Shown here piece by piece: positions 9,913 to 11,505 of a DNA stretch of 64,000 nt. The DNA is from Escherichia phage vB_EcoM-S1P5QW. Position numbers and translations under genes: made by a program. The stretch lies in the sequence record OL956808.1; one strand, given 5' to 3'. The notes under the pieces are model-generated. The model made no database searches. It saw only the letters and a list, made by a program, of their open reading frames with translations, and was not told the origin of the DNA. Each line of letters starts with the position of its first letter. Position 1 is the stretch's first letter.

Positions 9913-9985
9913 TGGGAATTAGCCAAGTTGGTAAGGCACTGGATTTTGATTCCAGGATGCAAAGGTTCGAGTCCTTTATTCCCAG
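9913..9985 (+). tRNA. tRNA-Gln (anticodon UUG)
   Basis: cloverleaf folded by eye: acceptor TGGGAAT/ATTCCCA, anticodon loop TTTTGAT, T-arm GGTTCGAGTCC; no encoded CCA. Confidence 0.8.
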
Positions 9986-9986
9986 C

Positions 9987-10073
9987 GCGAGAATGGTCAA
10001 ATTGGTAAAGGCACAGCACTTAAAATGCTGCGGAATGATTTCCTTGTGGGTTCGAGTCCCACTTCTCGCACCA
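9987..10073 (+). tRNA. tRNA-Leu (anticodon UAA)
   Basis: acceptor GCGAGAA/TTCTCGC, anticodon loop CTTAAAA, long variable arm, encoded CCA. Confidence 0.8.
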
Positions 10074-10078
10074 AATTT

Positions 10079-10152
10079 GCGGATATCGTATAATGGTATT
10101 ACCTCAGACTTCCAATCTGATGATGTGAGTTCGATTCTCATTATCCGCTCCA
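10079..10152 (+). tRNA. tRNA-Gly (anticodon UCC)
   Basis: acceptor GCGGATA/TATCCGC, anticodon loop CTTCCAA, CCA encoded. Confidence 0.8.
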
Positions 10153-10156
10153 ATTT

Positions 10157-10807
10157 ATGTCTCGTCGTGAGACGCTCAGTTCTTTATTAGGGACTGATAT
10201 GCATTTTTATCTTTATAAAATAACAAATAAAATTAATAATAAAATTTATATTGGTGTGCATTCTACCGAAAATTTAGATGATGGATATATGGGTTCTGGT
10301 AAATTATTAAAAAGAGCCCAAGATAAATATGGTATAGAAAATTTTTCTAAAGAAATATTAGAGTATTTTGATGATAAAGAATCTATGCTTGAAGCCGAGA
10401 AAAATATTGTCACAGAAGAGTTTTTAAATAGACCAGATGTGTATAATTTAAAACTTGGAGGTGAAGGTGGATGGGATCATATAAATAATTATCCTATGAC
10501 AGATCAGCAACGCGAATTAATTTCATTGGGTGTTAAAAAGGCACATTCTAACGGAAAATTAAAAGGATGGTCTTCAAATGGATTAATGAAAAATGGCTTT
10601 GCTGGTAAAACTCATTCTCAAGAAGCTAAACGTAAAATAGCAAAAGCAAACGAAGCAAAAGTTTCTGCGAATGAAAGAAAAAGAAGAATAGAAATTTCTA
10701 AATTATATGATTTTTCTAAGCGGGGTGAATTATCTAAATATGCTAAGCATATTGGCGTAAGTCATACTCAAGCAAAAAGAATTCTAAATCAAATTAACAA
10801 TATATAA
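10157..10807 (+). mobile_element. segB: GIY-YIG homing endonuclease (SegB-like) inserted in tRNA cluster
   Basis: 216-aa ORF with GIY-YIG motifs (FYLYKI...KIYIGVHS) and repeated NUMOD3-like motifs; lies between tRNA-Gly and tRNA-Ser. Confidence 0.8.
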
Positions 10808-10813
10808 ATATTT

Positions 10814-10903
10814 GGAGGCGTGGCAGAGTGGTTTAATGCACCGGTCTTGAAAACCGGCAGTCGCTCCGGCGACTCATAGGTTCAAATCCTATCGCCTCCG
10901 CCA
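10814..10903 (+). tRNA. tRNA-Ser (anticodon UGA)
   Basis: acceptor GGAGGCG/CGCCTCC, anticodon loop CTTGAAA, long variable arm, CCA. Confidence 0.8.
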
Positions 10904-10908
10904 GTTTT

Positions 10909-10985
10909 GCTGATTTAGCTCAGTAGGTAGAGCAACTCACTTGTAATGAGAAGGTCGGCGGTTCGATTCCGTCAATCAGCACCAA
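10909..10985 (+). tRNA. tRNA-Thr (anticodon UGU)
   Basis: acceptor GCTGATT/AATCAGC, anticodon loop CTTGTAA, CCA. Confidence 0.8.
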
Positions 10986-10986
10986 G

Positions 10987-11061
10987 GCCCTGTAGCTGGA
11001 AGGTTCAAGCAAGCGACTCATAATCGCCAGATGGTGGTTCAATTCCACCCAGGGCCACCAA
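10987..11061 (+). tRNA. tRNA with CAU anticodon (Ile by analogy with T4 tRNA-Ile, or Met)
   Basis: acceptor GGCCCTG/CAGGGCC, anticodon loop CTCATAA; D-arm atypical. Confidence 0.65.
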
Positions 11062-11070
11062 ATTAATTTG

Positions 11071-11157
11071 GGGAGTTATCCCGTAGAGGTAGCGGTGTGG
11101 ACTGTAAATCCATTGTCATTGCGACTCGGGTGGTTCGACTCCATCACTCCCCACCAA
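11071..11157 (+). tRNA. tRNA-Tyr (anticodon GUA), type II
   Basis: acceptor GGGGAGT/ACTCCCC, anticodon loop CTGTAAA, long variable arm resembling bacterial tRNA-Tyr. Confidence 0.65.
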
Positions 11158-11160
11158 TTT

Positions 11161-11235
11161 GGATGTGTAGCTCAATGGCAGAGCGATCGCCTGTTAAGCG
11201 ATTGGTTATAGGTTCGAATCCTATCACTTCCGCCA
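11161..11235 (+). tRNA. tRNA-Asn (anticodon GUU)
   Basis: D-arm GCTCAATGGCAGAGC, anticodon stem ATCGC/GCGAT with loop CTGTTAA, T-arm ATAGGTTCGAATCCTAT, CCA; one acceptor mismatch. Confidence 0.65.
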
Positions 11236-11349
11236 AATTTGTGACAACTGTCACATTAATATCTACTTGACGCGATTATCGGGGTTGAACTGATCACTCT
11301 TCTCTTAATTTCGTGTGAAGACATCTTGATTGTTGGAGTAGGTATTAAT

Positions 11350-11425
11350 GTGGCCGTAGTTCAGTTGGTAGAACTCGAGATTGTGATTCTCGTAGTCATG
11401 GGTTCGACTCCCATCGGTCACCCCA
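11350..11425 (+). tRNA. tRNA-His (anticodon GUG)
   Basis: anticodon loop TTGTGAT, discriminator C73 then CCA, T-arm ATGGGTTCGACTCCCAT. Confidence 0.7.
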
Positions 11426-11429
11426 ATTA

Positions 11430-11505
11430 CGGGGCATAGCTCAGAAGGAAGAGCAAGGACCTTCTAAGTCCTGGGTCGTAGGTTCGATCCCTACTGCCTC
11501 GACCA
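11430..11505 (+). tRNA. tRNA-Arg (anticodon UCU)
   Basis: anticodon loop CTTCTAA, T-arm GTAGGTTCGATCCCTAC, CCA encoded. Confidence 0.8.

Follow-up and report, generated by a model that had tools for sequence, protein, structure and literature searches.

The tRNA and stable-RNA operon of Escherichia phage vB_EcoM-S1P5QW: a known mosaic allele containing an unannotated structured RNA

The transfer RNA (tRNA) regions of T4 and its relatives differ in content. In T4 the order is Gln, Leu, Gly, Pro, Ser, Thr, Ile, segB, Arg, rnaD, rnaC; in T2 it is Gln, Leu, Gly, Pro, Ser, the trna.1 open reading frame (ORF), Met, Tyr, Asn, Arg and the trna.2 ORF; and in T6 it is Gln, Leu, Gly, Thr, Met, Tyr, segB, Arg. 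The Met/Tyr/Asn/Arg set of T2L was published in 2008 by Brok-Volchanskaya et al. (PMC2330249). T4 SegB cleaves within tRNA genes and homes with 99.6% inheritance of its locus in crosses (PMC2330249), and T6 SegB amplifies tRNA-Tyr, leading to escape from the Septu defence (PMC13096335). The roles of RNAC and RNAD in T4 are still unsolved (PMC3014915). Here we describe the corresponding region of Escherichia phage vB_EcoM-S1P5QW (sequence record OL956808.1), analysed in a window of 64,000 nucleotides (nt), in which ten tRNA genes and a GIY-YIG endonuclease gene, all on the + strand, occupy positions 9913 to 11505. An earlier note on this DNA had read the region as a tRNA cluster of altered repertoire split by segB.

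Identity of the operon and its modules

The region is the tRNA/stable-RNA operon of the Tequatrovirus phages, in the allele typified by RB18 and AR1. Its genomic slot is that of T4: three upstream ORFs of 61, 140 and 95 amino acids (aa) have the order of T4 trna.4, trna.3 and trna.2, the e.8 side lies downstream, and the slot holds orthologues of T4 tRNAs, rnaD, rnaC and a terminator. A megablast search with positions 9700-12300 against GenBank phages matched 1,150 records, nearly all of them enterobacterial T4-like phages. In 52 records one place covers at least 80% of the query, and the top matches listed reach 100% coverage at 96-98% identity. RB18 (MH553563), AR1, vB_Eco_EL and about 50 similar Tequatrovirus phages have the same ten tRNAs in the same order, a SegB-like gene between Gly and Ser and a 114-nt Asn-His spacer; the annotations of RB18 and vB_Eco_EL read Gln-Leu-Gly, endonuclease, Ser-Thr-CAU-Tyr-Asn-His-Arg, exactly as in the window, and the flanking ORFs of the relatives are annotated Trna.2 and RB32ORF132c. 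Since these phages already annotate this layout, the cluster itself is a known one. The repertoire does differ from that of T4, as the earlier note had it, but it is nothing out of the ordinary: many GenBank records annotate this standard RB18/AR1-type allele identically, in a region long known to vary.

The ten tRNAs were identified by two programs. ARAGORN, run on the whole window, made 11 calls, ten of which were accepted. Rfam family RF00005 gave the identical set, all over the gathering score, and the starts and ends match those proposed earlier by eye. Nine of the ten score 59-73 bits (E 1e-11 to 5e-15). The weakest match is tRNA-Tyr, at 30.2 bits against a cut-off of 29; this is no sign of a pseudogene, because its counterpart in T6 is expressed and, under Septu, rescues infection (PMC13096335). 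Against the eight tRNAs annotated in T4, Tyr, Asn and His are thus additions whose folds both programs accept, and Pro is absent as had been claimed, with no ARAGORN call for it in the whole 64 kb. CCA is encoded by nine of the ten.

Alignment with T4, T2 and an IMG/VR contig, L022 (eleven tRNAs including Pro, no endonuclease), accounts for the missing tRNA-Pro. Homology ends just after tRNA-Gly(UCC) (10079-10152) and restarts at +1 of tRNA-Ser(UGA) (10814-10903). Between these clean breakpoints a cassette of 656 base pairs (bp), 10158-10813, sits where the other three have an 85-bp tRNA-Pro segment, so that Pro is missing because the cassette exactly replaces it. Presence or absence at one exact position, in genomes that are collinear elsewhere, is typical of a free-standing homing endonuclease, and an intact GIY-YIG ORF does lie between Gly and Ser, running from 10157, or from the likely true start at ATG 10199, to 10807. 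The start at 10199 puts the IYIG motif residues at Y17 and G19, as in T6 SegB, where the Y17A/G19A mutant is catalytically dead (PMC13096335).

The catalytic domain of the encoded protein matches Pfam PF01541 (26.8 bits, cut-off 22.6), and residues 15-131 (117 aa) are 83% identical to T4 SegB by BLASTP, with KIYIGV conserved. BLASTP found no SegB similarity past about residue 131, where SegB has the C-terminal DNA-binding domain that sets target specificity. The C-terminal 106 aa recur at 95% identity or more in 55 phage records; their identity is 60-70% to Jiaodavirus endonucleases (from T4-like phages of Klebsiella) and 40% to the trna.1 ORF of T2L; a NUMOD3 match falls just under the Pfam cut-off. 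The insertion site is not that of SegB either, being Gly-Ser in place of Pro as against Ile-Arg in T4. We therefore file the gene, on its domain composition and its site, as a SegB-like free-standing GIY-YIG homing endonuclease, a domain-shuffled relative of SegB. The name segB used in the earlier note suits the catalytic domain; it does not extend to the unrelated C-terminal domain or to the site. The T6 SegB motif RAWTSGAAC has nine matches in the 64 kb, four of them in this 1.9-kb region.

We note that two hairpins (10160-10198) precede the likely start of this gene. The second, 10176-10197, covers an AGGGA Shine-Dalgarno-like sequence and may limit translation of the endonuclease. Other T4 genes, I-TevI among them, are known to be under translational control of this kind (PMC3014915).

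tRNA-Leu(UAA) (9987-10073) and tRNA-Gly are identical to their T4 counterparts, tRNA-Ser is identical apart from an encoded CCA, and tRNA-Thr(UGU) (10909-10984) differs from T4 at a few positions. The one tRNA without an encoded CCA is tRNA-Gln(UUG) (9913-9986), as had been noticed; a single C is followed by +1 of tRNA-Leu. The two genes abut as in the T4 Gln-Leu dimeric precursor, and the CCA-less Gln is inherited from the T4 arrangement. Its acceptor, D and T arms are identical to T4, with the whole anticodon arm replaced (loop UUUUGAU versus CUUUGAC in T4). The pattern resembles a patch conversion of that arm, the one attacked by anticodon nucleases.

The CAU-anticodon tRNA (10986-11060) is a T2-type allele. 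The atypical D-arm reported for it is seen in the ARAGORN fold, where the D stem is of 3 bp and the D loop of 10 nt, 27:43 is mismatched and the variable loop measures 4 nt. Its acceptor stem, GGCCCUG/CAGGGCC, includes C4:G69 and C5:G68. These are the pairs used by TilS. Its best E. coli match is an annotated tRNA-Ile (81.6% identity over the full length) with an identical anticodon arm, AGCGACTCATAATCGCC, and it is closer to host tRNA-Ile(CAU) than to tRNA-Met. Because of the acceptor pairs and the match to E. coli tRNA-Ile with its identical anticodon arm, we assign it as a tRNA-Ile2-type decoder of AUA, like T4 tRNA-Ile, with lysidine presumed at the anticodon. The RB18 annotation likewise names it tRNA-Ile, its anticodon probably modified.

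tRNA-Tyr(GUA) (11070-11156) differs by 2 nt from T6 tRNA-Tyr, and T6 and T5 have exactly the same variable arm. The CAU and Tyr genes (10986-11156) are 96-97% identical to genes of rV5/FV3-like Vequintavirus phages, whose genomes are of 136 kb. So close a likeness indicates that unrelated phage families have recently exchanged tRNA genes. tRNA-Asn(GUU) (11161-11235) has T at position 69, giving a U4.U69 mismatch, where RB18, vB_Eco_EL and T2 have G (U4.G69). The change falls within the published SegB recognition stretch of tRNA-Asn. tRNA-Arg(UCU) (11430-11505) is a T2-type allele unrelated in sequence to T4 tRNA-Arg. Its acceptor end comprises C1:G72, G2:C71, G3.U70, G4:C69 and A73, and it also has A20 and C35. 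A G3.U70 pair is the alanine identity determinant, and mischarging is a possibility. The same pair is found in T5 tRNA-Arg, and T2 tRNA-Arg has A3:U70.

Origin and purpose of the repertoire

We consider it very probable that the RB18/AR1-type operon is a mosaic whose tRNAs serve both codon supply and defence back-up. The ten co-oriented tRNAs, a 101-nt RNA in the Asn-His spacer, rnaD and rnaC probably share one transcript that runs to the terminator at 11821-11849, and host RNase P and 3′-end enzymes would cut it to mature RNAs as they do in T4. The repertoire is unlike that of T4 because the region is assembled from exchangeable modules. The first is the GIY-YIG cassette that exactly displaces the tRNA-Pro segment, the second the block CAU-Tyr-Asn-Arg, a T2-type allele, and the third the structured RNA together with tRNA-His, a 194-bp unit of insertion or deletion. 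SegB-type endonucleases cut tRNA genes at a T-loop sequence, which leads to gene conversion and to amplification of flanking tRNAs; this was shown for T4 and T6 and plausibly applies here.

One purpose of the tRNAs would be to supply the AGA, AUA, GGA, UCA, ACA, UUA, CAA, AAU and UAU codons favoured by an AT-rich phage. Codon usage was counted in 70 long ORFs (49 kb) and compared with the codon frequencies of E. coli. AGA is enriched 4.3x, AAU 2.5x, UCA and AUA 2.4x each, GGA 2.3x, ACA and UAU 2.2x each, UUA 1.9x and CAA 1.5x. Nine of the ten tRNAs therefore serve enriched codons. This comparison with codon usage, which the earlier note had recommended, fits those nine and not His.

The second purpose would be replacement of host tRNAs that defence systems cleave; Tyr would counter Septu and retron-Eco7, and PARIS would be countered by Thr and Asn. 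In experiments with T5 and T6, orthologues of these three tRNAs rescue phage from tRNA-cleaving defences (PMC13096335, PMC11555353, PMC12409363), and deletion of the tRNA-rich region of T6 raises sensitivity to Septu (PMC13096335). The PARIS nuclease AriB cuts the E. coli tRNAs Lys, Thr(UGU) and Asn(GUU) between positions 40 and 41 within UAAUC, and His and Pro may be minor targets; infection is restored by T5 variants of the principal targets, and cleavage is abolished by a U39 substitution (PMC12409363). The equivalent stretches in the window are UAAUG/A in Thr and UAAGC/G in Asn, the latter with G39 as in T5 Asn. The two sequences are compatible with resistance to PARIS cleavage. By analogy with the orthologues, replacement of host tRNAs is likely a second role of Tyr, Asn and Thr.

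Several points weigh against the combined reading. CAU is enriched only 1.14x and CAC stands at 0.35x, so that His codons overall are rarer than in E. coli and tRNA-His is unexplained by codon demand; the same tRNA lacks the G-1 relied on by E. coli histidyl-tRNA synthetase (HisRS). The DNA-binding domain of the endonuclease differs from those of T4 and T6 SegB, and its gene does not adjoin tRNA-Tyr, unlike that of T6. T6 tRNA-Tyr is itself cleaved by Septu and acts via dosage only (PMC13096335). Co-transcription and processing are carried over from T4, and the defence role from the T5 and T6 orthologues.

A simpler account is that the ten tRNAs solely decode AT-rich phage codons poorly served by E. 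coli. The 1.5-4.3x enrichment of the codons read by nine of the tRNAs speaks for it, as do Asn and Tyr codons that together reach about 1.5-1.6x the host frequency. Against it, tRNA-His is present although its codons are not enriched, tRNA-Pro has been lost to the endonuclease although CCA (Pro) is 1.4x enriched, and there is no tRNA-Lys although AAA is 2x enriched. Together with the rescue by T5 and T6 orthologues cited above, this makes codon compensation on its own a possible but rather unlikely explanation.

We regard as somewhat less likely again that Tyr, Asn, His and the T2-type Arg and CAU genes are near-neutral cargo, spread by lying beside homing endonucleases and their cleavage sites and not through any benefit to the phage. 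The patchwork of presence/absence modules in otherwise collinear phages is what such hitch-hiking would leave, T4 SegB converts the whole T2L block (99.6% inheritance), and the T4 tRNA region is reported to be non-essential (PMC2330249); the near-identity of the CAU and Tyr genes in unrelated Vequintavirus phages fits as well. Against this reading, the tRNAs are intact and high-scoring, with changes that are compensatory rather than degenerative, their repertoire matches codon usage, and loss of the T6 tRNA-rich region has the cost under Septu noted above.

A structured RNA beside a tRNA-His without G-1

The 114-nt spacer between tRNA-Asn and tRNA-His(GUG) (11350-11425) is as conserved across genera as the tRNAs. 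BLAST located it in 355-370 phage records, from Tequatrovirus, Karamvirus, Jiaodavirus, Gelderlandvirus, Roskildevirus and one Vequintavirinae phage; in all, about 355 genomes from six genera or lineages of T4-like phages, besides Vequintavirinae, carry it. None of the records listed has an RNA feature for it, the annotations under the match being only those of adjacent tRNAs or hypothetical proteins. The conserved sequence is predicted to be a 101-nt structured RNA (11252-11352, + strand). It folds as a three-way junction with a 17-bp closing helix P1, a bipartite P2 and a 4-bp hairpin P3, connected by junction strands GAC, GUGAA and G (3, 5 and 1 nt). The last 3 nt of the 3′ strand of P1 are G1-G3 of tRNA-His.

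The fold is supported by covariation. Twelve distinct sequences were aligned with MAFFT, including a divergent IMG/VR copy whose P1 sequence is wholly different. Paired cells make up 95.2% of this alignment, against 37-49% when the partner columns are slid, and both sides have changed at 13 of 28 pairs, against 3-6 when slid. None of 500 shuffles reached the observed value on any pairing measure. Covariance models give 111-117 bits to the + strand as against 18-24 bits to the - strand, and the non-Watson-Crick pairs are G.U on the + strand. These two observations rule out an inverted repeat at the DNA level or a miniature inverted-repeat transposable element.

Other identities were also considered and rejected. 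A degenerate tRNA is not indicated, as the spacer gave no tRNA-like Rfam match. A promoter is disfavoured in that no sigma-70-like site was found on the + strand; a TTGACG is not followed by a -10-like hexamer, and a covarying strand of P1 lies upstream of it. A hammerhead or other known ribozyme does not fit the junction strands of 3, 5 and 1 nt; the one sequence resembling CUGAUGA, CUGAUCA, is placed in a loop, and the ribozymes of Rfam gave no match. Permissive scans for a family in Rfam 15 gave only chance-level SNORD111 (15 bits) and MIR5565 (13 bits). Searches of 5,426 E. coli genomes and of 72,556 plasmids found no match. In GTDB genomes a pattern scan gave only scattered matches in unrelated taxa, which we judged from the listing, without a covariance-model check, to be chance.

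By covariance models the window has one copy of the element and the T4, T2, T6 and T5 loci have none. In T2, RB6 and RB27 the element and tRNA-His are missing as a single block, and in Tequatrovirus the two constitute one 194-bp insertion or deletion unit. Across phages the gap between the element and the 5′ end of a tRNA is 0-2 nt, or the two overlap by 3 nt; this tRNA is mostly His, with Gln in A7_1 and Met in the contigs L080 and L085. The exception is STP4-a, in which tRNA-Asn begins 27 nt downstream of the element. In Jiaodavirus and in EnC07 the element also abuts the CCA of the upstream tRNA. Our favoured guess is excision of the element from the tRNA precursor as a stable RNA, with RNase P making its 3′ end. 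The element may also affect how the downstream tRNA is matured at its 5′ end.

The adjoining tRNA-His scores 65 bits and has an anticodon loop identical to that of E. coli hisR. It has the GUG anticodon and C73 of bacterial tRNA-His, and the genome-encoded G-1 is replaced by T. T occupies position -1 in all 15 phage tRNA-His genes examined (the window and 14 others, from five T4-like genera and T5), with C73 kept; in E. coli hisR this position is G. For HisRS, G-1 is well established as the main element of identity (PMC3245924). The T at -1 also takes part in the pairing of helix P1. The T5 GenBank feature for tRNA-His is 1 nt longer than the ARAGORN call and thus includes this T. A literature search on phage tRNA-His lacking G-1 found nothing specific.

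That tRNA-His, and possibly other members of the cluster, is non-translational, a decoy or a processing partner of the upstream RNA, would accommodate the uniform T at -1, the lack of enrichment of His codons and the constant company of His and the element in Tequatrovirus, but we think it improbable, given that the tRNA is otherwise canonical, that the element precedes Asn, Gln and Met genes too in other phages, and that in the T5 record a U-1 tRNA-His with an amber anticodon is an effective suppressor (charged amino acid unstated), so that the T5 U-1 tRNA-His must be aminoacylated.

The T5 record also holds the closest parallel to the element, a 106-nt 'RNAIII, stable RNA with unknown functions' directly 5′ of tRNA-His. 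Homology between the two was undetected by sequence, and our models R1 and R2 scored RNAIII at 9.4 and 12 bits (E 1.4-4.4), under chance matches. The internal helices also differ. Like the element, RNAIII abuts a U-1 tRNA-His, is of similar size and forms a long helix from its own 5′ and 3′ ends. This 16-bp terminal helix runs into U-1 and G1 of the tRNA, and a 4-bp hairpin stands beside its 3′ strand as in the element. We give roughly even chances to the proposal that the spacer represents an undescribed phage small-RNA family, perhaps the functional counterpart of T5 RNAIII, that could govern the unusual 5′ maturation of U-1 tRNA-His or, as a processed stable RNA, play a part in the conflict of phage tRNAs with host defences.

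Downstream genes and comparison with known phages

The operon extends past tRNA-Arg into homologues of the small stable RNA genes rnaD (11507-11626) and rnaC (11633-11770), both located by alignment with T4, and ends at the conserved intrinsic terminator, a 10-bp GC-rich stem followed by a T run that is kept in T4 and RB18. The eleventh ARAGORN call, 'tRNA-Lys(UUU)' at 11678-11771 (94 nt), was rejected. It has an 8-bp acceptor stem with broken D and anticodon stems, corresponds to the tRNA-like 3′ half of the rnaC homologue and reaches just 17 bits, to tRNA-Sec. This 3′ domain combines an acceptor-like stem of 8 bp with a perfect T arm, and its loop, CUUUUAA, is the same as the anticodon loop of tRNA-Lys(UUU).

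RB18, vB_Eco_EL and T2 have an extra 351-nt ORF, similar to T2 trna.2, exactly between tRNA-Arg and rnaD, whereas the window and T4 are without it. This ORF is a further presence/absence module (11506 in the window versus 3814-4190 in L002 and 2832-3200 in L005). Just past the terminator a 157-aa ORF (11895-12368, + strand) resembles RB32ORF132c of RB18 and has no Pfam match; T4 has a longer, unrelated segment in its place.

As a tRNA cluster the locus is one more copy of a known T-even allele and adds nothing new, and published work already covers its variability, its endonuclease and the likely roles of the tRNAs. It does illustrate the reshuffling of phage tRNA sets by homing endonucleases, in this case with the loss of tRNA-Pro. 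Tyr, Asn and Thr may give this lineage resistance to Septu, retron-Eco7 or PARIS, which bears on the choice of therapeutic T4-like phages. What is new is a widespread small RNA, supported by covariation, inside phage tRNA arrays, unannotated and outside Rfam, and the finding that coliphage tRNA-His genes are systematically without the encoded G-1 needed by E. coli HisRS. Both bear on the long-open question of the 'stable RNAs' of the T4 and T5 tRNA regions.

Set beside the described systems, the window combines parts of several. With T4 it shares the genomic position, identical Leu, Gly and Ser, a near-identical Thr, the CCA-less Gln-Leu junction, rnaD, rnaC and the terminator. T4 differs in having Pro, in being without Tyr, Asn, His and the 101-nt element, in carrying different alleles of Ile and Arg, and in missing CCA on four tRNAs (Gln, Pro, Ser and Ile) as against one in the window. 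T2L shares the Met(CAU)-Tyr-Asn-Arg alleles; T2, however, keeps Pro, has no intact endonuclease and is without Thr, the 101-nt element and His. The anti-Septu module of T6 (Chihara et al. 2026, PMC13096335) likewise has a GIY-YIG gene of the SegB family embedded in a tRNA array. The T6 segB is of the T4 type and adjoins tRNA-Tyr, whereas the endonuclease gene of the window lies about 260 bp upstream of Tyr and encodes a different DNA-binding domain.

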